64,000 bases of DNA from Enterobacterales bacterium (GCA_041556195.1 JBFFIY010000002.1:278-64277); one strand, 5' to 3'; shown: positions 47,453 through 63,554, numbered from the stretch's first letter. Notes: a model not told the origin generated them from the letters alone. Translations and numbers: made by a program.

Positions 47453-48654
47453 CTCAACCATTGAATCCCCAGTAACGACAGACAAAAAACCAGTGATATT
47501 ACAGGAATAAAAGCAGGAACCGTAAAACCTGCATGTGGATCTTTGCGGCGTTTAATAACCCATAAGCTTACGCTAATAACAGAAAACACAATGAGAATTA
47601 AACTACTGGTTAACTTAGCCAGGGTGAGCATGGGTAACGTCCAGGCAACCAATAAAGTGATAATTGCAATGGTTATGGTTGCTAACACGGGGGTTTGTGT
47701 TTTGGCATTAATTCGCTTAAAAACCGCAGGAGCCATTTTCTTTTCGGCTAATCCATAAAGCACCCTTGAACCCATAATAAGTTGCACCAGAGCACCATTT
47801 ATAATCGCAATTAACCCAATAACGGTAATAACAGACACCGGGATCTGACTATTCCTTTTTACAATTTCAACAAATGGCGCCTGATGCCCTGAAAGCTCCT
47901 CCAGAGAGAGACTACTTAAAGCTGCCAATGCTGTTACTAAATAAAGTAAAGTAGTTACCCCAATCGCTATTAATATTGCTTTAGGTATATTGCGTTCAGG
48001 TTCTATCACTTCCTCGGCAATATTAACAATATCTTCAAATCCAATATAAGCGTAAAAAGCAATAAAAGCCCCCAAAAAAATCGCTTTCCATATTGGCCAT
48101 TCAAATTCCGGAATAAATTGCAGTTGTTGGAAATCCAATTGAGAAATTTTGTCTGTTGACACCCAGATAATTAACAACACACCTGCAATTTCAATCAGGG
48201 TTACAACCATGGCGAAACCTACAGATTGCATAATTCCCCAGATAGCAATCAACATGATGAGGAAAATAACAACAAAAACTCCAACATGAATATCTACCGG
48301 GAAAAAAATTGAAAAATAACCCATAAAACCACGAGCTAATACCCCCATTGATACAATGCCAGTTGCAATAATACTCCATCCTATAAAACTGGAAATAAGG
48401 TTAGAATTAAACGCATTCAACACATAAGTGGCTTCGCCGGCACTTTCCGGGAAACGGCTGGCCAATTCTGAATAACATAAACCTACAAGTAGTGCGATAA
48501 CGAAAGCTACCATGAAAGCAGTAACAGTAAAGCCTGAACTAACAGCTGCTACTTTTCCAACCAAAACATAGATCCCGGCACCCAGAATAGTGCCAATTCC
48601 GTAAAAACTTAATAACGGAAGTGTAACTACTCTCTTTAATACGGGGGGAGACAT
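47449..48654 (-). CDS. APC superfamily amino acid permease
   Basis: 401 aa, about 11-12 TM. N-terminal GIGTILGAGIYVLVG motif. Confidence 0.8.
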   Translation of the reverse strand: MSPPVLKRVVTLPLLSFYGIGTILGAGIYVLVGKVAAVSSGFTVTAFMVAFVIALLVGLCYSELASRFPESAGEATYVLNAFNSNLISSFIGWSIIATGIVSMGVLARGFMGYFSIFFPVDIHVGVFVVIFLIMLIAIWGIMQSVGFAMVVTLIEIAGVLLIIWVSTDKISQLDFQQLQFIPEFEWPIWKAIFLGAFIAFYAYIGFEDIVNIAEEVIEPERNIPKAILIAIGVTTLLYLVTALAALSSLSLEELSGHQAPFVEIVKRNSQIPVSVITVIGLIAIINGALVQLIMGSRVLYGLAEKKMAPAVFKRINAKTQTPVLATITIAIITLLVAWTLPMLTLAKLTSSLILIVFSVISVSLWVIKRRKDPHAGFTVPAFIPVISLVFCLSLLGIQWLS

Positions 48655-48819
48655 AATAGCAACAAGTCATATAGAGAATACCCTAAGTGTAGACTCTAAA
48701 TACCAAACAAACGAGAACATTTACTCAATAACTGAATCAAAATACTGATTGCAATTGTTCTACAAATACACCCAATAAATTAGTCCGAAAGTTTGGCGCA
48801 TAAACAACGACAACTGTTT

Positions 48820-49563
48820 TTACCTTGATGGAAAACTATGACGACGGGTCACTTTAGGTAACAGTTCAAAAAACGCATTAAACACCTGCAAACTGAGTTG
48901 TTTTGATTTTTCTATATACTGAATTGTATCATTTTGAATTTGTTCTATTGCAACCTGACGATCAGATCCAGGCAGATAACGCATTGATTCTGCTGTAGTA
49001 AACCAACGTTGTATTAAATGCTCAGTAATTTCCAAGTGAAATTGAAACCCATAGACATTATCACGATAAAGAAAAGCCTGATTAGGACATATTTTACTGG
49101 CTAATAACCGATGGCTACTATCGGGTAAGTCAAACGTATGTTCATGCCATTGAAAAATTCGCTGATTATCTTCAAAAAAATGACAGATTGAATCCTGACA
49201 TTTATCTGTTTTCTTTAATTCGAACCATCCAACTTCTTTCTCAGTCGCAGAATAAACTTTACTACCTAAGGCTTTAGCGATTAATTGTGCACCAAGACAA
49301 ATTCCCAAAATCGGCATTCCTGTTTTTATCGCTTGTTGGATCAGATTGATTTCCTGTAATAGAAATGGAAATTGTTCAGTATCATCAACATTCATAGGCC
49401 CACCCAACACAATCAGAGCATCATAGTCCTCTATTGTTGTAGATACATCAGGCGTTCTTACAAAATTGATATGTTTAATACGATGACGTTGTTCTCTCAA
49501 TAATGAAACAATGGTGCCGAGAGGTTCATAGGGTACATGCTGGATCACAATAACTTTTGCCAC
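48820..49563 (-). CDS. class I glutamine amidotransferase-like protein
   Basis: 247 aa. Nucleophile elbow GICLGAQL and His/Glu block GFQFHLE. Confidence 0.75.
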   Translation of the reverse strand: MAKVIVIQHVPYEPLGTIVSLLREQRHRIKHINFVRTPDVSTTIEDYDALIVLGGPMNVDDTEQFPFLLQEINLIQQAIKTGMPILGICLGAQLIAKALGSKVYSATEKEVGWFELKKTDKCQDSICHFFEDNQRIFQWHEHTFDLPDSSHRLLASKICPNQAFLYRDNVYGFQFHLEITEHLIQRWFTTAESMRYLPGSDRQVAIEQIQNDTIQYIEKSKQLSLQVFNAFFELLPKVTRRHSFPSR

Positions 49564-49689
49564 GAATACTCCTCAGTTTATGAATTCACTCTATGACGAG
49601 TTGGAAATGTTTACAACTAAACAATATACCCGTTATCAATTTGAAGCAATCCACCTCAAAACTGTTGAGCTATCTCTAAATATTGTTTC

Positions 49690-49719
49690 TGAGCCGAATA
49701 ATAGTAACTATTCGGCTCA
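49690..49719. other. orphan 11-bp perfect hairpin (TGAGCCGAATA - 8 nt - TATTCGGCTCA)
   Basis: Read directly. Lies in the 610-bp non-coding junction between core genes and the defence island. No T-run follows on either strand. Confidence 0.5.
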
Positions 49720-49801
49720 TACATAAGTTTCGCTCTATTTAAACCGAATACATAAAATGAGCCTGGATAATAATAAGAATACAATTCATAAACACAAAAA
49801 C

Positions 49802-50070
49802 CAGACTTAAATAACCTGAGCTCGGGATAAGAATAGTCAAAATACTATTAAATATTAGTAAGTTATAAATACTTTATAGCAAACGGTTATCACAGGGTTA
49901 TAATCTGTCCAGTGCAAATACTTTAGTGGTTATCACCAAAAGTAGGCGCTTTAGGCGAGGCGGACTAGCGTAGTAATCCCGCTATTGCTAGCTAGTTCAA
50001 CGCAGAGAACCGCTAAAATAGTTGTGTCGGGTGATTGTTCTTATCCCGAGTTCAGGTTAATTTAAGACTG
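49802..50070. mobile_element. MITE-like 269-bp non-coding element bounded by ~30-bp imperfect terminal inverted repeats
   Basis: Left end 49802-49836: CAGACTTAAATAACCTGAGCTCGGGATAAGAATAG. Right end 50038-50070, reverse-complemented: CAGTCTTAAATTAACCTGAACTCGGGATAAGAA. The 27/28-nt TTAAAT..GGATAAGAA cores differ by one substitution and one 1-nt indel; the 5-nt CAGAC/CAGTC extension adds one more substitution. The interior has no ORF, contains GGTTATCAC twice, and has a GC-richer stem-rich stretch at 49941-50020. Confidence 0.4.
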
Positions 50071-50172
50071 GTAAATGGATTTGACAGAAATGCCAGCATA
50101 ATTGAAGTACAATGTTGTTTTGATTAAAGTATAGGCAATTACACCGCTAATTTTATAGATCTCGGATAACCA

Positions 50173-52065
50173 ATGAAAGATAACACTTTAGACGATCAAT
50201 CTTTTGATCTTATCATTATGTATTTTACCAATATCGCGACAAATACATCAGATCCGTTGACTTGTTGCAACAATGTTAAAGCAACATTTCCCCTTGTGAT
50301 GGAAGAGCTGTTTGGTCCTCCTCAAGGAGAATTATTGTCTTTTTGGCTTGGCGTGCAACTATGGAATATTTTTCCTCATCCTGATAATAATTTTCAACCC
50401 ATAAAGATTGAACTACCTAAACGTAACCAGAGTTGTTTGTGTGGTTCAGGTAAAAGATTTAAACAATGTTGTATCAATGTCCCAATGATTGATAGTTTTT
50501 CTTCAGAGATGTTCTGGCCCTATCTGGTTGATATGTTATCTCATAAAGACCTGGTTGAAGCTGCAAAGCAACGCCAACTACCAGTGGATGGATTGAGAAT
50601 AGTGGCGGAGATATACTTAAATAATGATGAACCAAAAAAAGCGATAGCTTTGCTAGAACCTTCTTTTGCTGATGAAGGTAAACATTTGAGCAAACAACAC
50701 AGCGGATTAACTGACTTACTCTGTGATGCATACAATGAACACTATCAGACCGACAAAAAGAAGGTCAAGCTTTTGGAGCAATTAAAGCATCACCCTGTAA
50801 AACGGATCCGCTGTGAAGCCTGGCAGCGGATAGCCAGTGTAAATGCTGAGAAAGGGAATCATAAGCAGGCTATAGAGGCACTATATGAAGCGATGAAAGC
50901 TGATCCAAAGGACTTGAGCAATGCGATCTTAGAAATTAAATTACTGGTTTCTTCCAACAATATCGAAATGGCTAAGCAACGAGCGAATTTTTGGTACACG
51001 AAAATAGTTAAATTCCCGGATGTTTTCAAAAAATTAGGTGACTTCCTGGAGACAGCCAAAACAGATCCTGTCGAGGCTCTTTCTCAAATGCAAATAGATC
51101 GATTTAATGATCCTCAACTCGAAGTTTTACAGCACTGGTTTGATACAAATCATCAATCGATCCCCTTGCCTGATTATCAATTGGATTCTATGGGAGTAGA
51201 TGAAGAATCCATAGAAAATTTTATTCTTAAATCACCCAAATCCTGTAGTAAAACCTTTGAGATGTGGCAAGATGATTTTTCTCCTTGTGATAAGCCATTT
51301 TCAACTCAATGGATAAATGAAGTAGATACCTGGTTTGATCCCTACGATACTGATTGGATTGAGTTCTTAGAAAAACATCCAGACTCTGTACATAATATCG
51401 ACTTACTCGATGATGTTATCAACTGTTTAATGGCACACCCGGGAAATGAATTGCCTGTTAGTCCTGCGAAACAGTTGGCAAAAAAAATCGCTGACCATGT
51501 ACTAAATATCCTTTTACCACTGTCAACAGAAATTTTAGAAAATTCAACTCAAAGATTCAGTTGGCTGATTCTTGATAATCGGCCAGCACTGAGAATTCTG
51601 GCAAACAGAATCCTGTTGACCGAAGACAATAGCCCTGAAGCCTTCACTTTGATAAATACTTATATCAAGCTCAATCCAACAGATAACCATGGTTTTAGAT
51701 CTCTGCTTATGAACCAGATGATCCGTCAACGTGAGTATAAACCAGCCAAAGAACTCGCATCCCAATACCCTGATGATTGTTTGGTCGACATGATGATGGG
51801 AAAAGCATTGGCTGATTTCGCCGAAGGAGACAAAGTAGCTGCAGGGGAAAACCTGAGATCTAGCCTGCAATATCACCCCTTTTTGATTCCGTATTTAACA
51901 AGAACTCGAGTGGCTAAACCAACATTTAGCGAATTCGGCATTGCCATGGGCGGCAAGGATGAAGCATGGATTTATCGAGAAGAAATGCGTGATGTCTGGT
52001 TACAGATGCCGGGAGCCTTAGAATGGTTAAAAGAACAACATAAATTAATTGACTATAAAAAATGA
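50173..52065 (+). CDS. SEC-C motif protein with TPR-like helical repeats (630 aa)
   Basis: CLCGSGKRFKQCC metal-binding SEC-C motif near residue 100. The rest is helical-repeat-like. No enzymatic motif recognised. Confidence 0.6.
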   Translation: MKDNTLDDQSFDLIIMYFTNIATNTSDPLTCCNNVKATFPLVMEELFGPPQGELLSFWLGVQLWNIFPHPDNNFQPIKIELPKRNQSCLCGSGKRFKQCCINVPMIDSFSSEMFWPYLVDMLSHKDLVEAAKQRQLPVDGLRIVAEIYLNNDEPKKAIALLEPSFADEGKHLSKQHSGLTDLLCDAYNEHYQTDKKKVKLLEQLKHHPVKRIRCEAWQRIASVNAEKGNHKQAIEALYEAMKADPKDLSNAILEIKLLVSSNNIEMAKQRANFWYTKIVKFPDVFKKLGDFLETAKTDPVEALSQMQIDRFNDPQLEVLQHWFDTNHQSIPLPDYQLDSMGVDEESIENFILKSPKSCSKTFEMWQDDFSPCDKPFSTQWINEVDTWFDPYDTDWIEFLEKHPDSVHNIDLLDDVINCLMAHPGNELPVSPAKQLAKKIADHVLNILLPLSTEILENSTQRFSWLILDNRPALRILANRILLTEDNSPEAFTLINTYIKLNPTDNHGFRSLLMNQMIRQREYKPAKELASQYPDDCLVDMMMGKALADFAEGDKVAAGENLRSSLQYHPFLIPYLTRTRVAKPTFSEFGIAMGGKDEAWIYREEMRDVWLQMPGALEWLKEQHKLIDYKK

Positions 52066-52573: not shown

Positions 52574-53686
52574 ATGACATGGCAACCAGATCAACCATAC
52601 AATGATTTACCACTCTTGCCTCCAAAGTTCGATTTGGATTCAGTTGCTATTTTAAAGGCTTGCATTCCAGCACGTGTCGCTTTGGCTGAGCTTAAAAAAA
52701 CCGGGGAATTGCTACCAAATCAAAGGGTATTAATAAATTTACTACCTTTGTTAGAAGCGAAAAACAGCTCTGAAGTCGAAAATATACTGATCACCACAGA
52801 TCAATTATTCCAATTTGCGCATGAAGACGGCCTTGCCGATGCAAAAACCAAAGAAGTACTTCGCTATAGATCGGCGTTGCACCGTGGATCTCAAGAACTA
52901 GCCAATAAACCGTTGTCTGGCAAAATCGTAATGGAAATATGCAGCACAATCAAAGGCATTCAGATGAATGTTCGCAAAATACCAAGAATCACTCTGGCAA
53001 ATCCCCTCACAGGTAAAGTGATCTATACACCACCATCAGGTGAAAATCACATCAGAGATCTTTTGGCTAATTGGCAAGCTTTTTTACATCAAGATGATGA
53101 AATTGATCCACTCGTTAAAATGGCAATCGCTCATTATCAATTTGAAGCCATCCACCCGTTTCTTGATGGTAACGGTCGAACGGCTCGAGTACTGAATATA
53201 TTGTACTTAACCGGATCGGGCTTATTGAGTTTACCCATTTTACAATTGAGTCGATTTATCCTTCAAAACAAACAGGATTATTATCATCTGCTTCATGAAG
53301 TAACAAAAAATGGAGACTGGCAAGGCTGGATCCTTTATATATTAAAAGCTGTGGAACAGACTGCAACCTGGACAACTCAAAAAATAACCGCCGTAAGGCA
53401 ACTTATTGAACATACCACAGAGTTCATTAAAACCAACTTACCCAAAATCTACAGCCATGAACTGGTTCAAGCCATTTTTGAACAACCCTGTTGTCGAATT
53501 ACTAACCTGGTTGAACAAAATATTGCCAAAAGACAAACTGCCTCTGTGTATTTAAAACAACTATGTGAGATCGGTGTTTTACAGGAAATAACCACTGGCA
53601 AAGAAAAACTTTTTATTCATTCAAAATTGATTCAATTGATAACTGAGGGTAAGCATGAGTTTGATTATTACTTAGCTAAACAATGA
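52574..53686 (+). CDS. Fic family protein (class II, N-terminal inhibitory helix)
   Basis: 370 aa. Active-site motif HPFLDGNGRTAR (HxFx[D/E]GNGRxxR), inhibitory-helix motif SSEVEN (SxxxEN), C-terminal wHTH-like region. Confidence 0.85.
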   Translation: MTWQPDQPYNDLPLLPPKFDLDSVAILKACIPARVALAELKKTGELLPNQRVLINLLPLLEAKNSSEVENILITTDQLFQFAHEDGLADAKTKEVLRYRSALHRGSQELANKPLSGKIVMEICSTIKGIQMNVRKIPRITLANPLTGKVIYTPPSGENHIRDLLANWQAFLHQDDEIDPLVKMAIAHYQFEAIHPFLDGNGRTARVLNILYLTGSGLLSLPILQLSRFILQNKQDYYHLLHEVTKNGDWQGWILYILKAVEQTATWTTQKITAVRQLIEHTTEFIKTNLPKIYSHELVQAIFEQPCCRITNLVEQNIAKRQTASVYLKQLCEIGVLQEITTGKEKLFIHSKLIQLITEGKHEFDYYLAKQ

Positions 53687-53976: not shown

Positions 53977-54070
53977 GGGGGGAATTTGACATTTGCAAAC
54001 AGATAGCTTATGTTTCATGTATTAACTATTATTAATAATAACATCTGAAAATAGAGCTAATTTTATTTAT

Positions 54071-55570
54071 ATGGATATTTCCAAATATAAAGCTGGTACT
54101 TACAAACAGAGCTATCAATATAAGTATTTTCTACCCAGCAAGATAAACCATTCTTGGATATTTTCAGATCCCCAAGTCCAGCAACTGCTTAGTGAAGCCG
54201 ATAGAGCTTTAGGAGCGTTGGATGCTTTTTCCGAATATTTGCCCGATGTAGATTACTTTGTTCAAATGCACCTTAGTAAAGAAGCTACTCAATCTAGCCG
54301 TATAGAGGGGACTCGAACAAATATAGAAGAAGTATTTATTGATGCGCAGAATATTGAACCAGAGAAAAGGGACGATTGGGAGGAGGTGCAAAATTACCTG
54401 ATAGCCATTAATACCGCTATAAAACAGTTACATGTTTTACCCTTCTCCAATCGCCTTTTAAAAGATACTCACAGAACCTTGATGCGAGGTGTTCGAGGCG
54501 AACATAAGAGACCCGGAGAGTTTCGGCTTAGCCAAAACTGGATCGGCGTAAGCCTGAAAAATGCTATATTTGTTCCACCTCATCAAGATCACATCGAAGA
54601 GTTGATGAGTGATCTCGAAAAATTCATCAATAATGAATTGAATGTCCCACATTTAATAAAAATTGCAATTGCCCATTATCAATTTGAAACCATTCACCCA
54701 TTTCTAGATGGAAACGGTAGGCTGGGTAGATTGATGATAGTACTTTATTTAGCGAGCTTTAATCAATTACATAAACCCGCTCTTTATCTATCTGATTACT
54801 TTGAGAGAAACAAGGTGGAGTACGTTAACAGGATGATGGCTGTCCGCTTGGCGGATGACATGAAGTCATGGCTGATTTTCTTTCTACATGGGGTATTAGA
54901 GACTTCAAAAAATTCAATTCAGGTATTTAAGGATATTATTGCGCTTAAATCGAAGCTGGAGCGTGAAGTGTTACCCTATTTTAGTACACGAAGGCAGCAG
55001 AATGCTCAGAACATAATGCGTCATCTGTATCAAGCCCCTGTGGTGAGTATAAAGGAGATCGCTGATCTGCTAGGTATCAACCTCAATACAGCATCTGCTT
55101 TAATCAATGACTTTGAAAAATATGGTGTGCTTACTAAATTAACGGCAAAAAAACGTAGTCGTTTATATGGCTTTAGTGAATATATGATGATATTTAAAAG
55201 ACAATATGATATTAGAGAATATGAGGATGAAGTAAATACCCAGGAGGATACCCAGGAGGATACCCAGGAGGACACCCAGGAGGATACCCAGGAGGATATC
55301 ATTACCAACAGTTCTCATGACATTGACTGGAAGATAAAACAGCTAATATCAAAATTTGATGGTGTGCTTAGTCGAGCTGAAATTCAGACTCTACTTGATT
55401 TGAAAGATGCCGAATATGTTAGGCAGCAATATATTTTGCCTGCGCTTAAAATGGGGGTTATTGAAATGACTCTACCTGATAAACCCTCGAGTAAGTTGCA
55501 GAAATACAGATTAACAACCAGAGGTGAGAAGATGCAGCAATATATAAGGACAGCTTCTAATGAAAACTAG
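54071..55570 (+). CDS. Fic family protein (class II) with repeat linker and extra C-terminal winged-helix-like module
   Basis: 499 aa. HPFLDGNGRLGR active site, SSRIEG inhibitory motif, (TQED)x5 linker, C-terminal ..LPDKPSSKLQKYRLTTRG.. block. Its stop overlaps the next gene's start by 11 nt. Confidence 0.85.
   Translation: MDISKYKAGTYKQSYQYKYFLPSKINHSWIFSDPQVQQLLSEADRALGALDAFSEYLPDVDYFVQMHLSKEATQSSRIEGTRTNIEEVFIDAQNIEPEKRDDWEEVQNYLIAINTAIKQLHVLPFSNRLLKDTHRTLMRGVRGEHKRPGEFRLSQNWIGVSLKNAIFVPPHQDHIEELMSDLEKFINNELNVPHLIKIAIAHYQFETIHPFLDGNGRLGRLMIVLYLASFNQLHKPALYLSDYFERNKVEYVNRMMAVRLADDMKSWLIFFLHGVLETSKNSIQVFKDIIALKSKLEREVLPYFSTRRQQNAQNIMRHLYQAPVVSIKEIADLLGINLNTASALINDFEKYGVLTKLTAKKRSRLYGFSEYMMIFKRQYDIREYEDEVNTQEDTQEDTQEDTQEDTQEDIITNSSHDIDWKIKQLISKFDGVLSRAEIQTLLDLKDAEYVRQQYILPALKMGVIEMTLPDKPSSKLQKYRLTTRGEKMQQYIRTASNEN
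55238..55297 (+). repeat. 12-bp in-frame tandem repeat x5 (ACCCAGGAGGAT; one copy ends C)
   Basis: Read directly. Encodes TQEDTQEDTQEDTQEDTQED inside Fic gene 2. Confidence 0.95.
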
Positions 55571-57737
55571 TGGTGAATACAAGATTAGACCTGCTGGACG
55601 GCACATATTAACTATCGGTAGAGATCTGATACAAGACTCATATGCGGCAGTTGTAGAGATTGTGAAAAATTCATTTGATGCAGATGCAAGTGAAGTTCTA
55701 ATCGAATTCAATGGTTTTACTGATAAAAAAGAATATACAATTGTAATACAAGATACTGGACATGGTATGTCTCATGAGGTGGTAATTAACAAATGGATGG
55801 TACCTTCAACCGAGGACAAACTAAAACGTAAAACGAGTCCTAACGGACGAGTTATGCAAGGAAAAAAAGGGGTGGGCCGCTATGCTGCTTCTATTCTTGG
55901 CGAAGACTTACTACTGGAAACGGTTGAAGAGTGTGGCAAAAGAACAATTGCATATTTAGATTGGAAAGACTTTGAAAATGCAGATTATCTAGATGATGTA
56001 GAAATATTAATAGAAACTGAATCTATTAATAGTACTAGCGGCACTAGACTAACCATCATGGGGGGAGAAGAACGTTATATTGAATGGAATAAGAATCAAT
56101 TTAATAAACTTAGATTTGAATTAAAAAAATTAATGCCTCCATCTAACATTGCTGAAGATGAAGAGCCCCAAAATAGTGATTTCTCAATTAGGTTATCAGT
56201 TGTTGGATTTGAAGGGGTTGAACCAATTGATGAGGTTATAGAACCATACCCAATTGCTGATTTATTTGATTATAAAATATCAGGAAAATTAAACTCTAAA
56301 GGAAAAGGTAAGCTAAATTACAGCTCGCAAAAAACAAAAAGTACATCTGATGAATCAATAGAATTCGATGCCGAAATTATTGGGACTGGTTGTGGAGAAA
56401 TTGAGTTTAATATTATGGTGTATGATCGTGAAAAAGAAGCTATTGAGGCTCTTATTAAACGAGGTTTGAAAGATGAACACGGTAAATATTTGGGTAAACT
56501 TGAAGCTAAGCAGTTATTAAATGTGAACAACGGGGTTGGTGTATACCGTAATGGTTTTAGAATCAGGCCGCTTGGTGATCCTGATTTCGATTGGCTTAAA
56601 CTAAATGAACAAAGAATACAAAATCCATCTTTGAGAATTGGTAGTAATCAAGTAATTGGGTTCGTTCACATTCAGTCTGAAGAATCATCGAATTTAATTG
56701 AAAAAAGTGCTCGAGATGGGCTAAAAGAAAATGAATCGTTTGACGTCCTAAAAAAAGTCACTTCGAAAGTTATTCAAGAACTCGAAAATAGACGTTTTCA
56801 ATTTCGAAGAGCCCTATCATTGAGTAATCCGAAGGCAAAAATAGAGCGCGAATTAAAAAAAATATTTTCAGTTGATAATGTTAAAAATAACATATCAAGA
56901 AAACTTAGAAAGTCAGGTGTAAGGACTGATGTTTTATCAGAAGTTCTTCAAATAATAGAACGAGATGCTAATGAAAAAAATGCAGCAGCTGAAGATATTC
57001 GACAAACTGTGGCTATTTATCAAGGTCAAGCTACGCTTGGAAAAATCATAAACGTAATTCTTCATGAAGGACGTCGGCCTTTGAATTTCTTTAAGAATCA
57101 AGTCCCAAATATAGAATATTGGCATGAAGAATATGTAAAATCTCCAACTCCTGAAATATTAAGTAAGATTATTCCTATTGCATTAAATCTTGGAGATAAT
57201 GCGGATATTTTTGCTAGACTTTTTAGTCGCTTAGATCCTCTTGCTGCAGGAAAAAGAGGTGCAAAGGTATCTGTGCCTTTTTCAGAAGCGCTTCAAGGCG
57301 TATTTTCCGTCTTTGAAGAAGAGATGGTATCTCAAAATGTAAAGATAAATATTACCGGACCAGATGACTTTATGTTTATTGGCTGGGTACAAGACTTATA
57401 CGCAATATTTACTAATTTAATTGATAACAGTCTTTATTGGATGGAAGAAAAAAACATATCAAATAGAGAGATTAATATCGACTTTTCGATTGATGGTAAA
57501 CAAATTCAATATATTGACTATCGTGATACCGGTCCCGGAATATCTCCTAGCCTACTAATAGCAGATCTTATTTTTGAACCGGAATTTACTACGAAAAATG
57601 AAGGGACAGGCCTAGGGCTAGCTATAGCTGGTGAATCAGCCGCTAGAAATGGACTTGACTTGAAGGTGTTCGACTCAAAACTCGGTGCATATTTTAGAAT
57701 GCAACCCAAATTGGACGGAAGCAATGCAGACATTTAA
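55560..57737 (+). CDS. dual-GHKL protein: N-terminal MORC/Hsp90/MutL-like ATPase domain + C-terminal histidine kinase (H-box + HATPase_c)
   Basis: 725 aa. N-terminal Bergerat-fold motifs EIVKNSFDA (N-box), DTGHGM (G1), GKKGVGR (G2). Candidate phospho-His in VILHEGRRPLNFF (His502, codon 57063-57065). Second ATPase domain: NLIDNSLYW, DTGPGI, GTGLGLAIA. No TM segment seen. Confidence 0.8.
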   Translation: MKTSGEYKIRPAGRHILTIGRDLIQDSYAAVVEIVKNSFDADASEVLIEFNGFTDKKEYTIVIQDTGHGMSHEVVINKWMVPSTEDKLKRKTSPNGRVMQGKKGVGRYAASILGEDLLLETVEECGKRTIAYLDWKDFENADYLDDVEILIETESINSTSGTRLTIMGGEERYIEWNKNQFNKLRFELKKLMPPSNIAEDEEPQNSDFSIRLSVVGFEGVEPIDEVIEPYPIADLFDYKISGKLNSKGKGKLNYSSQKTKSTSDESIEFDAEIIGTGCGEIEFNIMVYDREKEAIEALIKRGLKDEHGKYLGKLEAKQLLNVNNGVGVYRNGFRIRPLGDPDFDWLKLNEQRIQNPSLRIGSNQVIGFVHIQSEESSNLIEKSARDGLKENESFDVLKKVTSKVIQELENRRFQFRRALSLSNPKAKIERELKKIFSVDNVKNNISRKLRKSGVRTDVLSEVLQIIERDANEKNAAAEDIRQTVAIYQGQATLGKIINVILHEGRRPLNFFKNQVPNIEYWHEEYVKSPTPEILSKIIPIALNLGDNADIFARLFSRLDPLAAGKRGAKVSVPFSEALQGVFSVFEEEMVSQNVKINITGPDDFMFIGWVQDLYAIFTNLIDNSLYWMEEKNISNREINIDFSIDGKQIQYIDYRDTGPGISPSLLIADLIFEPEFTTKNEGTGLGLAIAGESAARNGLDLKVFDSKLGAYFRMQPKLDGSNADI

Positions 57738-58809
57738 ACTACTCATGGTTGAAGATAATCAGAGCGACTTACAAACAAGTATAGATACGCTTGAACGATA
57801 TAAGAGTCAGAAAAACAGAAATATAGAAATGATCTCTTCCAAGAGCATTGAAGAAGCTTTTTCTCTACTCGACAATACATTTGATGGTGCAATTATCGAT
57901 ATGAAACTGTCTGATAAAGGAGGTGAAGGTAATCAGGTTATACGGAAAATAGCAGAATCTAATATTAGAATTCCAATTGTAGTGTTTACAGGTACGCCGT
58001 CAGTTGCTGATGCAGGTAATGCTTATATAGAAGTATGCAAAAAAGGAGAAAATACTTATGAGGAGATATTTGATCGTTTATGGGGTATACATTGTTCAGG
58101 TTTAACTAGAATTATGGGGGGAAGAGGAATTATTGAAAGCACCCTTAATCAAGTCTACAAAGAAAATATACTGTCTCAGAAGGACGCATGGGTAAACTAT
58201 GGTGTAGTTGATTCGGAAAAGACTGAAAAATCACTTTTAAGATATACACTAAATCACCTTCTAGAACTAATTGATGAGAATGAAAAATCCTACCCTGAAG
58301 AATATTTTATTAACCCACCTGTAAGGAAAGGATTGACAACAGGTAGTCTAGTACTAAATGTAAAAGATAATAAGTGGTTTGTTGTACTTAATCCCGCTTG
58401 TGATTTAGTGCTGCGTCCTGATGGTAAATTCAAAACGGATAAGCTTTTTCTAGTCGAAATTGAAAACGAAGAAAATGTAATCGCTACTGCTTTAGGGGAT
58501 AATAATAATAATCCAACTAGCAACAAAGCGATAAAATCCCATAATAAAAAATTATCTGATATCTTTAAAAACAACCACACTCCCTATAATCATTGGGTTC
58601 CTAAAACCACCTTTTTTTCTGGTGGATTTTTAAATTTTAGGTCTGTTTTGACTTGTGACACTGTCACATTTATAGAGAAATTTTCAGACCCCAAATCACA
58701 AATTTCACAACCATTTATCAAAGATGTAGTATCTAGATTCTCGTCCTATTATGCGCGTCAAGGTCAACCTGATATTGATTTTTACAGCCGATTAAAGTCA
58801 GCTGATTAA
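57724..58809 (+). CDS. response-regulator receiver domain protein with unassigned ~240-aa C-terminal domain
   Basis: ATG 57724 (MQTFKLLMVEDN..) overlaps the kinase stop by 14 nt. REC signatures: E10-D11, acceptor Asp59 (AIIDMKL), VVFTGT, CKKG. The C-terminal part (..VVLNPACDLVLRPDGKFKTDKLFLVEI.., ..SRFSSYYARQGQPDIDF) matches no family I can name and has no HTH. Confidence 0.75.
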   Translation: MQTFKLLMVEDNQSDLQTSIDTLERYKSQKNRNIEMISSKSIEEAFSLLDNTFDGAIIDMKLSDKGGEGNQVIRKIAESNIRIPIVVFTGTPSVADAGNAYIEVCKKGENTYEEIFDRLWGIHCSGLTRIMGGRGIIESTLNQVYKENILSQKDAWVNYGVVDSEKTEKSLLRYTLNHLLELIDENEKSYPEEYFINPPVRKGLTTGSLVLNVKDNKWFVVLNPACDLVLRPDGKFKTDKLFLVEIENEENVIATALGDNNNNPTSNKAIKSHNKKLSDIFKNNHTPYNHWVPKTTFFSGGFLNFRSVLTCDTVTFIEKFSDPKSQISQPFIKDVVSRFSSYYARQGQPDIDFYSRLKSAD

Positions 58810-58815
58810 TATGTA

Positions 58816-60387
58816 TTAAAGAATTGAATGTACGATTTTTGCAATTTTATTAGCCAAATATGGAGGGACAGCATTACCAACTTGTACATATTGCTGAGTT
58901 CGAGTGCCGACAAAAAAATAATTGTCAGAAAATGTTTGAATTCTAGCCGCTTCGCGTACAGTTAAACTACGACATTGTGAAGGATCTGGATGAATGAAAT
59001 AGTGTCCATCTTTTGAAATATGGCACGTAACAGTTGTGGCTGAAATGTTCCAAGGTTGAACTCTAAATCGATCAGCAAATTTACCTGACTTAAAATTTTT
59101 ATGATTAGGCATTAATTCATCTGGATAATCTGGTGATTTTGGTGTTAGTGAACTCCAATTGTTTTTTGCTCCAATTTGTGCCCAAACACTACAAAACAAA
59201 TATCTCTGTAAATCTGACGACATATGTCCTCTGGTATCGTGATTACAAACATGATTACCCAAATTCTTATCGTAATACCATTTCCGTAAATCGGCATTAT
59301 CGATTTTTTTGTTTCGTCTTAATCCAAAAATTTTCCCCTGACCTAAACTGGGGGTAGTAAGATTATCTATAATATTTTTTAGTTCGTTCGCTATATCCTT
59401 TTTTGAGTTTAGTTTCAAAGATTTTATAGTATTAATTGATTGTGTTTTTATTGTGTGAATCCAATTGGCATCAGTGTTTTCTTCTTTAGATAAACCGCTT
59501 CTTAATGCCGGCAAGTCTTTAATCACTTCAGAAAGTGTTATCTGTGTATCTTTTTTATCGAGAATTAATTTGTTATCCCATTTGTGTGCTAGATCCTCTC
59601 TAATACCAAGTAGAATAACTCGATGGCGGCGCTGTGGAATTCCATAGTGTTCGCATTTAACAATGAAATCCTGAGGTTTAACAAGTCCATCTTCAACAAT
59701 TGGAGTTGTCAGAGAGAATATTTTATACTGGTGTTTTGAGAAACCTCGCTTTGGATTAACATTTACTGCTTTGCAAGGATTATGCAGATCCTTGAAGATA
59801 GTTTCGTAAATAGACTTTCCATCTACTTTGGCCGATAGCATTCCTTTTACGTTTTCCATCACAAATGCCATTGGTTGGAACTGTGCGATTATTTTTAAAT
59901 ATTCTTTGTATAAGAAATTACGATGGTCTTCCTCTGCCTTATATTCGTCATTTGCTTTATTTTTTGACCTGCCCACAAGTGAATAAGCTTGGCACGGAGG
60001 CCCTCCAATAAGTATGCATTCATCCAAACCTAGAGCTTCTTTTATTCTTTTATTAATTGCTCTATTATCTTTCCCCAGTTCGAGGCATAAAGCTTCTCTA
60101 TCTGCAGCCTCAAGTTCTGCTGAAACTTCGGGTATTTTATAAAGCTCATCTTCAGGGCTTTTCCCTAACTCTCCTTTTAAAAAGTTGTAATAGGCCTCAG
60201 GAACGTCATTAGCAAATTGCCGATAAAACGAACGAAGCTTTAAAGTCCTATGGGCACTTTGTTCTTTTTCAATTGAAATAGCAATCTTGAAAGGATGTTT
60301 GTCTTCATCATCCTTATATGTGGAGAAGCCTTCACCAAGCCCTCCTGGGCCGGAAAAAATGTCAATTATTTTGACTGGTTTGCTCAT
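58816..60387 (-). CDS. dcm: DNA (cytosine-5)-methyltransferase
   Basis: 523 aa. Motif I DIFSGPGGLGEGF, motif IV GGPPCQAYS, motif VI MENVKGM, QRRHRV, motif X GNAVPP. Long variable region. Confidence 0.92.
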   Translation of the reverse strand: MSKPVKIIDIFSGPGGLGEGFSTYKDDEDKHPFKIAISIEKEQSAHRTLKLRSFYRQFANDVPEAYYNFLKGELGKSPEDELYKIPEVSAELEAADREALCLELGKDNRAINKRIKEALGLDECILIGGPPCQAYSLVGRSKNKANDEYKAEEDHRNFLYKEYLKIIAQFQPMAFVMENVKGMLSAKVDGKSIYETIFKDLHNPCKAVNVNPKRGFSKHQYKIFSLTTPIVEDGLVKPQDFIVKCEHYGIPQRRHRVILLGIREDLAHKWDNKLILDKKDTQITLSEVIKDLPALRSGLSKEENTDANWIHTIKTQSINTIKSLKLNSKKDIANELKNIIDNLTTPSLGQGKIFGLRRNKKIDNADLRKWYYDKNLGNHVCNHDTRGHMSSDLQRYLFCSVWAQIGAKNNWSSLTPKSPDYPDELMPNHKNFKSGKFADRFRVQPWNISATTVTCHISKDGHYFIHPDPSQCRSLTVREAARIQTFSDNYFFVGTRTQQYVQVGNAVPPYLANKIAKIVHSIL

Positions 60388-60453: not shown

Positions 60454-60900
60454 ATGGATATAGTTAATAAAAAACATCGTTCTCGTATGATGGCTAATAT
60501 TCGTTCTAAGGATACAAAACCTGAGGTACTTGTTAGAAAAGCTATACACAAAGCAGGTTACAGGTATAGGTTGAACACAAAAATTGGGCGAATAAGACCA
60601 GATATCGTCTTAACCAAACTGAAAGTAGCAATATTTGTACACGGTTGTTACTGGCATCGTCACGCCGAATGTAAGCTATGTTACATGCCAAAAACCAGAA
60701 TTGAGTTCTGGAATAAAAAATTTACTGAAAATATGGAAAGAGATAAAAGAGTAGAATTGACACTTAAATCGCAAGGATGGAGAGTTGCCGTATTCTGGGA
60801 ATGTGCTACGAGAAATGAAGAACGCCTTAAAACGGAAATTAACAACCTTGTAAGTTGGCTGGAATCAAAAGAACAGAGTTTTGAAACCGCCCTGATTTAA
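60454..60900 (+). CDS. vsr: very short patch repair endonuclease
   Basis: 148 aa. Blocks SRMMANIRSKDTKPE, YRYRLN, PDIVL, AIFVHGCYWHRH. Divergent from dcm. Confidence 0.9.
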   Translation: MDIVNKKHRSRMMANIRSKDTKPEVLVRKAIHKAGYRYRLNTKIGRIRPDIVLTKLKVAIFVHGCYWHRHAECKLCYMPKTRIEFWNKKFTENMERDKRVELTLKSQGWRVAVFWECATRNEERLKTEINNLVSWLESKEQSFETALI

Positions 60901-61052: not shown

Positions 61053-61802
61053 TTGTTATTTCAAGATCCGAATGATGAACCTGCATTGGTTTTGTTGAAA
61101 AAAATAGCGAAAGAAAAAGAAAGGTTGATTGCGGAGAAGAAGATAAAGAAACAGAAGGCGTTACCTGAGATTAGGGAGGATGAGAAGCCGTTTGAGTTGT
61201 CGGAGGGATGGGAGTGGTGTCGAATAGGAAACGCAGCGATTTCAACGGATTATGGATTGTCAGATAAATCGACAGTAGGAGATAAGGGAGTTCCTGTCCT
61301 TGCAATGGGACATATACAAGGAGGTGAAATACTTCTGGGAAATCAAAAGGTTGTTCCTGAGTCGGTTGAATCACTCCCTGAGCTATACCTTAAAAATAGA
61401 GATTTACTTTATAACAGAACAAATAGTGCAGAATTAGTTGGTAAAACTGGTATATACCGCGGTGATGACCAAGAGTATACATTTGCTTCTTACTTAATAA
61501 GAATTAGAACAGATAAAGAGTCATTGCTTCCTGAATTTATAAATCTAAATATGTTGGCACCTGAGTTTAGGGTTACGCAGATTAATCCACACCTGAAACA
61601 ACAATGTGGACAAGCGAATGTAAATGGAACGATAATGAAGCATATGATAGTTGCTATTGCTCCTGAATTTGAGATAGCGCGTATAGTTTCTAAAATTGAT
61701 GAACTAATGGCATTGTGTGACCAACTAAAAGCGCAACTCAGTGATGCCCAAACCACTCAACGCCATCTTGCTGACGCGATTGTTGAACAAGCTGTTAGTT
61801 AA
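61053..61802 (+). pseudogene. hsdS: type I restriction-modification specificity subunit (HsdS) remnant: central conserved region + second target-recognition domain
   Basis: Begins inside the HsdS central coiled-coil (FQDPNDEPALVLLKKIAKEKERLIAEKKIKK), then a TRD and the C-terminal conserved helix (KIDELMALCDQLKAQL). In-frame stops lie upstream. No hsdM or hsdR gene was identified in the window. Confidence 0.7.
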
Positions 61803-61850: not shown

Positions 61851-62438
61851 ATGGATAGAATCACAGAATTTCATAATATTATGCCAATATCGAATATGAC
61901 TTCGGTGATGCAACATGGCCTGTTATCCCATGCTCGAGCCTCACAACTTAACCATGCTGATATCTCATTGGCCGAAATCCAAGATCGCCGTGATACAAAG
62001 TCTATTCCTCAAGGTAGGAAGTTACATGAATACGCCAATGTGTATTTCCATGCCCGAAATCCCATGATGTCCAAACGTAGAGATGAAGCTCAGAACCTTT
62101 GTGTTCTAAGGGTTTCCAACGAAATACTGAATATCCCTAATGTAGTAGTAACCGATCAAAATGCGGCTAGTGACTATGCTCGCTTTTTAGCTCCTGATCA
62201 AATGAACCGATTTACATTAGATCTGGATCTGATCTATGCTAGTGACTGGAGACACAATGATAAGATCTCCTATTGGAGGCATAAATCCAGGAAGTGTGCT
62301 GAGGTACTGGTTCCTGATATGATCCCAGTTGAGTATATTTTTGGTGTCTATGTGGTGAACCCACAGTCCGCAGCATTACTGCATCAAGTAGGTTGTCACT
62401 TACCTGCTGAAATTAATTCTGATTTGTTTTTTGGGTAA
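61851..62438 (+). CDS. darT: DarT ssDNA thymidine ADP-ribosyltransferase toxin (DUF4433)
   Basis: 195 aa. N-terminal FHNIMPISNMTSVMQHGLLS block, central NVYFHARNPM, C-terminal KCAEVLVPD (catalytic Glu context). Followed 6 nt later by a macrodomain gene. Confidence 0.8.
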   Translation: MDRITEFHNIMPISNMTSVMQHGLLSHARASQLNHADISLAEIQDRRDTKSIPQGRKLHEYANVYFHARNPMMSKRRDEAQNLCVLRVSNEILNIPNVVVTDQNAASDYARFLAPDQMNRFTLDLDLIYASDWRHNDKISYWRHKSRKCAEVLVPDMIPVEYIFGVYVVNPQSAALLHQVGCHLPAEINSDLFFG

Positions 62439-62444
62439 ACGATT

Positions 62445-63554
62445 ATGATGAAAGTGCTAATAGGTAATATGTTTGAGACGTCTATGCAGACATTGGTGAA
62501 CACCGTGAACTGTGTCGGTGTGATGGGTAAAGGAGTCGCAAAAACCTTTAAAGATCAATACCCTACAATGTTTGAAGATTATAAGCAACGCTGCGATCAC
62601 AAACAGGTGAAGCCTGGAGTTCCTTATTATTACCATGATATGTTAGGAGTCTCTGTTTTAAACTTCCCAACCAAAGATCATTGGCGCTCAGCCTCTAAAC
62701 TTGCAGATGTGATTAATGGTTTAGATATATTCGTTCAGAACTACAAGAAATGGGGAATTACATCAATTGCATTCCCTCCATTAGGTTGTGGAAATGGTGG
62801 ACTTGAATGGGAGTTAGTTGGTCCATTAATGTATCAACGCTTAAAACCTTTGGATATTGATATTGAAATATACGCACCTTTCGGAACATCAAAGACACAG
62901 CTAAAAAAAGAGTTTTTTGAGAAAACTGTTGAAGTTGATTTCTCAGAAAAAGGTAAAAAATCCAAAGCTTTTAATCCCGAATGGCTGGCTTTAATCGAAG
63001 TGGTAAAACAATTAGGCTTACAGCCATATACCAGTCCAATAGGAAGAACTATCTTTCAGAAAATTTGTTATATCATGACAGAACTTGGTACAGAAACAGG
63101 ATTTAAATTTAAACAAGGCAGTTATGGACCTTTTTCTGACAATATCAAAGACGCTTTGAACTATTTTTCAAATAGTAATCTCATTCAGGAAGAGCAACTG
63201 GGGAAAATGACAGCATTAAAAGTTGATGTTGCATATGATAGTTATTTAGTTAAATATTCGACAGTAATTGAGAAACGCTATAAATCAATTGTTAAAACAG
63301 TTGATCTCTTTAGTCGAATCAAAAGCACCGATCAAGCAGAAGAAGTCACTACCGTTCTTTTTGCTTCTAGAAGAGTTAAAGAAAAAAATGGAACTGCAAC
63401 TGAGCAAGAACTTTTTGATTATATTTTGGATTGGAAAAAATCCTGGAACAAACAAGACAAGAAAGAATCTGTATCATCGACAATTAGAAATCTTGAAATG
63501 CTTGATTGGCTTAAGCTAAATTCTAGTGATAGTTTTTCTCAGCAAATTAATTAA
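62445..63554 (+). CDS. darG: DarG antitoxin (N-terminal macrodomain + C-terminal DarT-binding domain)
   Basis: 369 aa. Macrodomain blocks LVNTVNCVGVMGKGVA, NFPTKDHWR, IAFPPLGCGNGGL. About 200 aa of C-terminal domain. Confidence 0.8.
   Translation: MMKVLIGNMFETSMQTLVNTVNCVGVMGKGVAKTFKDQYPTMFEDYKQRCDHKQVKPGVPYYYHDMLGVSVLNFPTKDHWRSASKLADVINGLDIFVQNYKKWGITSIAFPPLGCGNGGLEWELVGPLMYQRLKPLDIDIEIYAPFGTSKTQLKKEFFEKTVEVDFSEKGKKSKAFNPEWLALIEVVKQLGLQPYTSPIGRTIFQKICYIMTELGTETGFKFKQGSYGPFSDNIKDALNYFSNSNLIQEEQLGKMTALKVDVAYDSYLVKYSTVIEKRYKSIVKTVDLFSRIKSTDQAEEVTTVLFASRRVKEKNGTATEQELFDYILDWKKSWNKQDKKESVSSTIRNLEMLDWLKLNSSDSFSQQIN

Follow-up and report, generated by a model that had tools for sequence, protein, structure and literature searches.

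A compact, soluble double-GHKL histidine kinase and its receiver-type partner in a methylase-linked gene cassette of an Enterobacterales bacterium

Introduction

The closest described relatives of the system analysed here are soluble proteins in which a HATPase_c_3 domain, a His-containing region named HEF_HK (PF19191) and a HATPase_c domain follow one another, as reported in a 2021 study (Bellieny-Rabelo, Pretorius & Moleleki, PMC8011034). HEF_HK proteins adjoin a 'Response_reg_2' (PF19192) protein, have Dcm and Vsr nearby and are related to the paraMORC ATPases (PMC8011034). That study, which was purely computational, speculated on nucleoside triphosphate (NTP) sensing, had already put forward the idea that the N-terminal GHKL domain serves as the input, and left the output module unanalysed (PMC8011034). 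The present work concerns a double-GHKL protein of 725 amino acids (aa) and the partner protein encoded directly downstream of it, both located in a 64,000-nucleotide (nt) stretch of DNA from an Enterobacterales bacterium (GCA_041556195.1, JBFFIY010000002.1:278-64277; hereafter the window, in which positions are counted from the first letter). As in the HEF_HK system, the order of domains is HATPase_c_3, His hairpin and HATPase_c, the kinase is soluble, the receiver-type gene lies directly downstream, and Dcm and Vsr are near. Judged by profile comparison, the window holds a compact sister family of HEF_HK/Response_reg_2 that has a HisKA-like H-box and a receiver of canonical size. The architecture as such was already known computationally; the window adds to it a variant that is compact and abundant but poorly annotated, and whose output domain is unexplained.

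The GHKL ATPases of restriction-modification operons known as paraMORC were described by Iyer, Abhiman & Aravind in 2008 (PMC2292703). The window protein resembles them in its N-terminal GHKL domain with intact ATP motifs followed by a putative S5-type domain, in its linkage to cytosine methylase and Vsr genes, and in its sporadic, laterally mobile occurrence. In paraMORC proteins the S5 domain is directly followed by a nuclease, by a TIR domain or by no further domain, whereas here the output would be reached through a fused histidine kinase and a separate receiver protein. VcSduA, a paraMORC3-Shedu nuclease defence protein of validated anti-phage activity, likewise has a GHKL module, which is proposed to control its output domain (PMC12137116).

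A further point of comparison is Detocs, a cytoplasmic His-Asp phosphorelay of defence islands. Detocs reportedly comprises three genes, namely a kinase whose sensor is of the TPR type, a receiver that acts as a buffer, and a further receiver to which a PNP nucleosidase is fused. The window system would share with it the cytoplasmic His-Asp phosphorelay, a receiver fused to a non-transcriptional effector and the location in a defence island (Rousset et al., bioRxiv 10.1101/2023.01.24.525353). It differs from Detocs in having no buffer receiver, in using a GHKL ATPase as the sensor, in its effector and in being linked to a methylase; indeed, no second receiver gene was found in the window or in related loci. 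No PADLOC match of Detocs models to the window proteins was obtained, the presence of such models in the PADLOC version used being unconfirmed.

Two Bergerat-fold domains in one soluble protein

The double-GHKL gene and its successive segments are the following.

55560..57737, plus strand: double-GHKL protein (putative paraMORC-type ATPase and histidine-kinase core), 725 aa; open reading frame call, Pfam, family alignment and fold matches
55644..55985, plus strand: N-terminal GHKL ATP-binding domain HATPase_c_3, residues 29-142; Pfam E 5.5e-20
56157..56729, plus strand: beta-rich domain in the middle of the protein (about residues 200-390), interpreted as an S5-type transducer; fold alignments and invariant motifs
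56733..56996, plus strand: long helical linker, about residues 392-479, from the ATPase module to the kinase core; AlphaFold2 (AF2) helices
56997..57233, plus strand: DHp-like helical hairpin, about residues 480-558, with the H-box LHEGRRPL; AF2 helices and ZraS alignment
57267..57713, plus strand: kinase catalytic (CA) GHKL domain, about residues 570-718, with N/G1/F/G2 boxes; Pfam HATPase_c E 3.8e-16

An earlier note, made from the sequence alone, had claimed a single polypeptide with two Bergerat-fold ATPase domains and no membrane sensor. The reading frame is exact on the plus strand, and the motifs quoted for it (EIVKNSFD, DTGHGM, GKKGVGR, INVILHEGRRPLN, TNLIDNSL, DTGPGI and GTGLGLAIAG) all lie where they had been placed. 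Both domains are recognised by Pfam, HATPase_c_3 with 72 bits (cut-off 25) and HATPase_c, on residues 612-718, with 59.9 bits (cut-off 26.4). Of the profile searches proposed at the time, those for the two ATPase domains therefore gave scores above the cut-offs, while the one for HisKA gave no match. In the N-terminal GHKL domain the motifs occur in the order E33-x3-N37-x2-D40, D65-x-G67-x-G69 and G101-x-K103-G104-x-G106, the middle domain carries the conserved motifs GVYRNGFRIRPLGD and EKSARDGL (K382), and histidine kinases of the PDB match the CA domain by sequence with E values down to 6.5e-8. The codon of His502 lies at 57063-57065, within INVILHEGRRPLN, and the H-box reads H-E-G-R-R-P-L, which places an Arg at H+4.

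The highest 19-residue Kyte-Doolittle mean in the protein is 1.06, and none exceeds 1.6; the protein thus has no membrane segment and should be soluble. This bears out the earlier statement that hydrophobic segments are lacking, and the same goes for PAS, GAF and TPR signatures, none of which is matched by Pfam. HisKA is not matched either, and on residues 441-610 no HisKA-type match to Pfam appeared even at E values up to 10. Other models cover parts of the protein. Residues 20-166 resemble the BbrUII/HgiDII restriction-enzyme model NF050001 (E 5e-13, 48.5 bits against a full-length cut-off of 550), and the AtoS model spans residues 480-692 with a score far below its full-length cut-off; scores so far below the full-length cut-offs mean that only domains are shared. 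What the window protein has in common with BbrUII/HgiDII is a related N-terminal GHKL domain and the linkage to a cytosine methylase, but the match is limited to the first ~150 residues and the remaining architecture differs. A PADLOC REase_II match (E 2.3e-7) is confined to the first ~110 residues.

An AF2 model of the 725-aa protein, based on an alignment of 47 relatives, reached a mean predicted local distance difference test (pLDDT) score of 67.7, i.e., moderate confidence. When the model was compared with the PDB by Foldseek, two classes of structures were matched at a probability of 1.00. The first comprises MORC3, MORC4, MORC2, SMCHD1, Hsp90 and MutL-LN40, aligned over 450-500 columns, and the second HK853, FixL chimeras and LvrB, aligned over ~245 columns with template-modelling (TM) scores of 0.56-0.58 on the target. 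On the predicted structure, the first class corresponds to GHKL plus transducer modules and the second to DHp+CA kinase cores. The MORC/MutL-class alignments have a high root-mean-square deviation, and the confidence of the model in the middle domain is only moderate. Lys382 of EKSARDG, which is invariant, may act as the basic residue at the ATP site. The N-terminal half had previously been called MORC/MutL-like and the C-terminal half a kinase core with an H-box, and both assignments agree with these matches.

The ZraS structure 9jfj also aligns by sequence, over residues 493-704, and this alignment sets His502 (vilHEgrrPL) on the ZraS H-box (gvaHEirnPL). Four helices of the AF2 model make up the linker region (392-418, 425-435, 438-451 and 456-502), the last of which, together with helices 505-527 and 531-558, precedes the CA domain in a predicted pattern that fits a DHp hairpin kinked near Pro507. 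Like ZraS, AtoS and HK853, which are class I kinases of the HisKA type, the window protein combines an H-E-x-R-x-P-L H-box and a helical hairpin with a CA domain bearing N/G1/F/G2 boxes; unlike them, it has no membrane, PAS, HAMP or GAF input, carries Arg in place of Thr or Asn at H+4 and leaves the Pfam HisKA model unmatched. In the phosphatase motif of HisKA kinases, E/DxxT/N, position H+4 is taken by Thr or Asn. The Arg found at this position suggests that phosphatase activity would be weak, in which case the switch may be hard to reverse. The earlier note had further supposed that the N-terminal GHKL domain is an input gating autophosphorylation, which is plausible given its position in the protein.

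Conservation of the kinase

The 725-aa protein has more than 2,600 matches among database proteins. The best 120 matches are all 712-730 aa long and 58-62 % identical to it, keep both Pfam domains and come from many phyla. With so many matches, a uniform architecture and invariant motifs, the two-domain architecture is far beyond chance. Among the 47 relatives, the invariant residues of the N-terminal half are E33, N37, D40, D65, G67, G69, G101, K103, G104, G106 and K382, those of the H-box are H502, E503, G504, R505 and P507, and those of the CA domain are N619, N623, D656, G658, G660, F672, P674, F676, K679, G682, G684 and G686. All are also unchanged in relatives from Campylobacter, Bacillus and Hymenobacter plasmids that are only 39-43 % identical. 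Such constancy even at 39 % identity means that the two nucleotide sites and the phospho-acceptor His are under strong purifying selection; the same holds for the residues of the partner, described below, that serve Asp phospho-acceptance. Current annotations of the family read only 'sensor histidine kinase' and 'hypothetical protein'.

The partner protein and its output module

57724..58809, plus strand: partner protein, receiver followed by a helical linker and a 'PACD' output module, 361 aa
57724..58056, plus strand: receiver (REC) domain, residues 1-111; fold matches and invariant residues
58057..58278, plus strand: helical linker, residues 112-185; AF2 helices
58279..58806, plus strand: output module, residues 186-361; invariant residues and profile comparison to PF19192-type partners

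The start of the partner gene is most likely the ATG at 57724, which gives a canonical KLLMVEDN first strand and overlaps the 3' end of the kinase gene by 14 nt. The Pfam Response_reg match is weak (20.5 bits, below the cut-off of 30.2), while the fold search returned receiver domains at a probability of 1.00. In 41 relatives of the partner, E10-D11, D59 (57898-57900), T89 and K107 are invariant.

These residues bear on the proposal that the kinase part does not serve phosphotransfer at all, its second nucleotide-binding domain being an allosteric ATP sensor or dimerisation module to which a receiver-like partner binds unphosphorylated. Such a proposal could draw on the NTP sensing speculated upon for the sister family (PMC8011034), on the H-box region, which has no Pfam HisKA or HEF_HK match, and on the sub-threshold score of the receiver. 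It nevertheless appears very unlikely: His502-Glu503 and the N/G1/F/G2 set do not vary down to 39 % identity, Asp59, Thr89 and Lys107 of the partner are invariant, a pattern that is hard to explain without phosphotransfer, and the fold matches the DHp+CA cores of real kinases.

Beyond the receiver, conservation continues. The linker holds the invariant G126/G135 motif TGxTxIxGGxG and W156, which are kept in divergent members, and the output module contains the motif P224-x-C226-D227, hereafter PACD, with C226-D227 at 58399-58404. In members that are 28-46 % identical, the invariant residues outside the REC domain are G126, G135, W156, E193, P224, C226, D227, P293, R345, Q346, G347 and P349. 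Nothing in Pfam, PHROGs or the PDB sequences matches residues 112-361, and when the full partner model was compared by fold with the PDB and with viral structures, only receiver domains were matched. In a search of 1.84 billion representative proteins, the output region was found in 619 clusters at 50 % identity, and a REC domain of about 110 residues nearly always precedes it. Among the exceptions, a 571-aa protein (P0283) joins an N-terminal C5-methylase fragment to the partner linker and PACD module, and lacks the receiver; it may be a real fusion, or else an artefact of assembly or of a frameshift.

Several identities of the output module were considered. A Cys-His protease dyad C226/H290 is rejected, as in the divergent members H290 is not conserved and no invariant His is found. 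A classical PD-(D/E)xK reading is not supported, in that no conserved (D/E)xK is present in the strand after the PACD motif, and profile comparisons for a kinship with Vsr or HNH gave nothing.

Relation to the HEF_HK/Response_reg_2 family

The PF19191 model did not match the window kinase, nor the kinases of Yersinia, Aeromonas, Geobacter, Chlorobaculum and Campylobacter, and PF19192 matched neither the window partner nor any of 37 divergent partners. By contrast, a pair from a Rhizobium TAL182 plasmid (992 aa and 601 aa, then Dcm and Vsr) scores with both models, the kinase with 18.9 bits to PF19191 and the partner with 63.4 bits to PF19192 (cut-off 27). As the models do score the Rhizobium pair, the window family really lies outside PF19191 and PF19192. 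Among the 120 relatives listed for the TAL182 partner, a truncated entry of 341 aa is the single one that lacks PF19192.

The two families are nonetheless connected by profile comparison. With hhalign, the paraMORC+S5 region of the window family was aligned to that of the PF19191-type Rhizobium protein (98.6 %), and the output module was aligned to that of PF19192-type partners over 37 columns centred on the PACD motif (93.5 %); an R-x-G motif ends both types of partner. The differences are those of size and of detail: the proteins of the window type are compact (about 720 + 360 aa, compared with about 990 + 600 aa in the other family), the H-box is the HisKA-like LHEGRRPL instead of IAAHDLQ, and the receiver is of canonical size in place of the 180-aa Response_reg_2 domain.

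A methylase-linked cassette

Downstream of the partner gene, the window encodes two further proteins of the cassette.

58816..60387, minus strand: C5-cytosine DNA methyltransferase, 523 aa; Pfam DNA_methylase E 4.2e-45; PADLOC DrmMII/MTase_II
60454..60900, plus strand: Vsr very-short-patch-repair endonuclease, 148 aa; Pfam Vsr E 2.4e-26

The methylase gene is convergent with the partner gene and separated from it by a gap of 6 nt, and the Vsr protein is 43 % identical to that of the Desulfovibrio cassette described below. The methylase adjoins the double-GHKL kinase and its partner, neither of which shows a recognisable nuclease fold in Pfam, PHROGs or profile comparison.

Gene neighbourhoods were counted in the 80 best loci, out of at least 267 species-representative genomes. 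The partner lies directly downstream of the kinase on the same strand in 78 of the 80. A Dcm-like gene is present in 67, in agreement with the association that had been suspected from the sequence, and abuts the kinase upstream in 57 of those; Vsr is present in 45. The order Dcm-kinase-partner is seen on contigs of Desulfovibrio desulfuricans, Tateyamaria armeniaca and one metagenome genome, and is followed by Vsr in the first two. In two of these three long contigs, the start and stop codons of Dcm, kinase and partner overlap or abut, while Tateyamaria has a gap before the partner. Where all three genes are present (57 loci), the pairwise identities of the kinase are correlated with those of the partner (Spearman 0.80) and with those of Dcm (0.71). 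Most cassette Dcm proteins form one clade of ~420 aa that co-diverges with the kinase, which overturned an expectation, unfavourable to a unit, that the methylases would be mutually unrelated. The conserved methylase/Vsr neighbourhood of paraMORC proteins (Iyer 2008) is found here as well. Two features go beyond the earlier note, namely the conserved output module of the partner and the inheritance of kinase, partner, methylase and Vsr as one cassette.

The Dcm protein of the window is an outlier in that it is 523 aa long, ~29 % identical to the ~420-aa clade and encoded convergently downstream of the partner; this arrangement recurs in Aeromonas bestiarum (L067) and on Campylobacter plasmids. 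Some loci without Dcm have a DPPY-type N6/N4 methylase instead, and one lies beside type I HsdS/HsdR. Loci that lack Vsr have no consistent third gene after the partner. On Deinococcus gobiensis plasmid P2 (L091, 3544-8511), an Eco57I-type N6-adenine methylase is accompanied by a kinase of 750 aa, a receiver protein of 215 aa and a stand-alone HNH endonuclease. As far as the gene contents indicate, distant variants such as this one keep the kinase-receiver core and swap the methylase and the output.

The composition of these loci also informs two other explanations. According to the first, the pair would be an ordinary two-component system that controls the methylase/Vsr genes or others, the C-terminal module of the partner being a novel DNA-binding output, in a manner akin to the C-proteins that time restriction-modification. 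In favour of this, kinase and receiver are both intact, they are tightly linked to Dcm and Vsr, and the sister family was itself presented simply as a new two-component system (PMC8011034). We consider this unlikely, since the partner has no helix-turn-helix (HTH) or other DNA-binding signature in Pfam, its invariant residues are Glu, Cys-Asp and Arg-Gln-Gly and not a basic recognition helix, and an HNH nuclease follows the REC protein in Deinococcus; in addition, Dcm is mostly upstream in the same operon with overlapping codons, which leaves little space for a regulated promoter.

According to the second, the system would be an accessory of repair, in which the MutL-like module works with Vsr on mismatches arising from a mobile Dcm, and the phosphorelay tunes the repair or damage response. 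The fold resembles MutL-LN40, Vsr directly follows the partner in about half of the loci, a MutL-Vsr interaction has been cited (PMC2292703), and E. coli MutL stimulates Vsr. Against this, 35 of the 80 loci have no Vsr, although almost all keep an intact kinase-partner pair, some loci have N6/N4 methylases or no methylase, Dcm alone explains a neighbouring Vsr, and the island and plasmid contexts are those typical of conflict systems. A repair role thus seems quite improbable.

Distribution

The kinase was found in at least 267 species-representative genomes by an alignment-based scan; a genome scan with a single protein query had returned nothing. At the DNA level, complete E. coli genomes gave no match, and phage genomes gave two short fragments only. 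On plasmids, the family occurs in Campylobacter (conjugative plasmids), Bacillus, Hymenobacter and Enterobacter, and the Tateyamaria copy adjoins prophage genes. Conjugative (MOBP/MPF_T) plasmids of Campylobacter, 50-75 kb in size, regularly carry the kinase-partner-Dcm module, which sits there beside vapD and hicB; such plasmids of Campylobacter jejuni/coli number L006 and about 40 others. The sponge symbionts Candidatus Poribacteria are strikingly over-represented among the carriers (L043-L088). Their loci are often without an adjacent Dcm and have a DPPY-type N6/N4 methylase or remnants downstream of the partner. A metagenome-assembled genome (MAG) of a Methanoperedenaceae archaeon (L048, 6001-8148) holds a 59 %-identical kinase copy together with Dcm, partner and Vsr, which reflects either inter-domain transfer or a binning error.

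Genes around the pair

The genes that flank the cassette in the window include several candidates for defence.

50173-52065, plus strand: protein of 630 aa, located where the island begins to border on other genes, with TPR repeats and a SEC-C motif for metal binding
52574-53686, plus strand: second SoFic-type Fic gene; PADLOC SoFic E 7.6e-114
54071-55570, plus strand: SoFic-like Fic protein with an extra winged-helix and a Fic-like_C tail
61053-61802, plus strand: half-size type I specificity (HsdS) fragment, TTG start
61851-62438 and 62445-63554, plus strand: DarT/DarG toxin-antitoxin defence pair; DarT E 1.7e-38, DarG E 8.5e-91

Between the SoFic-like gene and the kinase gene downstream of it there is an overlap of 11 nt (stop and ATG), and a single strong promoter-like site, at 53986-54014, lies upstream of the SoFic-like gene. 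The latter may thus be co-transcribed with the kinase and the partner, in the position usually taken by Dcm. Near 55235-55295, it contains five tandem copies of TQED (12-nt unit). The 52574-53686 gene is located directly upstream of the 54071-55570 gene, so that two paralogous Fic defence candidates stand in tandem. Just downstream of Vsr is a complete DarTG pair, and the orphan HsdS fragment is probably a remnant, no HsdM or HsdR being found within the window. The weak PADLOC 'E2' matches of the 630-aa protein come solely through its SEC-C motif. GC skew turns from negative to positive at about 48000-52000, and GC falls to about 0.34-0.38 from roughly 50 kb onward; these changes coincide with the place where housekeeping genes, mostly on the minus strand, give way to the defence island on the plus strand. 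The remainder of the window is ordinary chromosome of a low-GC gammaproteobacterium.

Proposed function

From gene content and conserved residues, the system can be read as a methylase-linked, phosphorelay-gated defence module, i.e., a four-gene conflict cassette built around a cytoplasmic two-component pair, and we give this reading an even chance. It is supported by the flanking SoFic and DarTG genes, by the plasmid and prophage settings and by the overlapping, translationally coupled and co-inherited genes. The two intact GHKL sites, the intact His-Asp pair, the conserved output module, the distant variants with a constant kinase-receiver core and the likeness of the N-terminal GHKL domain to BbrUII/HgiDII restriction enzymes also speak for it, and Detocs and VcSduA, conceptually the nearest relatives with validated function, serve as precedents. 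In such a module, the paraMORC part would act as the input, undergoing ATP-driven dimerisation and engaging DNA or a DNA-bound protein, as MORC and MutL do, and would report foreign or unmodified DNA or another cue of invasion. The resulting change would travel down the helical linker to the DHp hairpin, allowing the CA domain to phosphorylate His502. The phosphoryl group would then pass from His502 to Asp59 of the partner and release the PACD output module, which could act on DNA or on another essential target. Meanwhile, Dcm would mark self DNA, and Vsr would repair the T:G mismatches that result from the deamination of 5-methylcytosine.

A number of observations weigh against the defence reading. 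The literature yielded no experimental work on either the compact family or the HEF_HK/Response_reg_2 family, and PADLOC has no model for the kinase-partner system. Profile and fold searches recognised no nuclease or other catalytic fold in the output module of the partner, for which 'effector' is a label suggested by its conservation. In the AF2 model of the kinase, pLDDT falls below 50 for residues 476-504, exactly around the H-box. The window Dcm is only ~29 % identical to the methylases of the other cassettes, against ~60 % for the kinase, which implies that the pair is probably not reading a methylase-specific sequence. Finally, in a few of the 80 loci no methylase lies within a distance of 6 kb, and such loci fit poorly with a simple scheme in which unmethylated DNA is restricted.

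In a more ambitious form of the defence reading, the cassette would represent a separate, new kind of methylation-linked immunity, whose destructive step depends on licensing through a His-Asp phosphorelay in place of direct recognition of a sequence. An ATP-driven, MORC-like clamp would sense whether DNA is unmodified or invading and switch on the fused kinase, and a receiver-gated enzyme of undescribed fold would thereby be activated, namely the PACD module with its invariant Glu, Cys-Asp and Arg-Gln-Gly. This module would be common to the compact and the HEF_HK/Response_reg_2 families. We regard this as a tentative and rather doubtful proposal.

Significance

In eukaryotes, MORC ATPases have a central role in the silencing of genes, and it is still debated how their engagement of DNA becomes a downstream signal. 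A bacterial MORC relative wired to a histidine kinase would offer a simple and assayable read-out, phosphorylation, of the activity of a MORC-type ATPase. The family is common, being present in at least 267 species-representative genomes and on many Campylobacter conjugative plasmids, yet it is missed by PF19191, PF19192 and PADLOC. If the defence reading is true, the system would be the second example, after Detocs, of two-component signalling in bacterial defence, and the first such case to be tied to DNA methylation, with an uncharacterised effector domain that is found in hundreds of sequence clusters.

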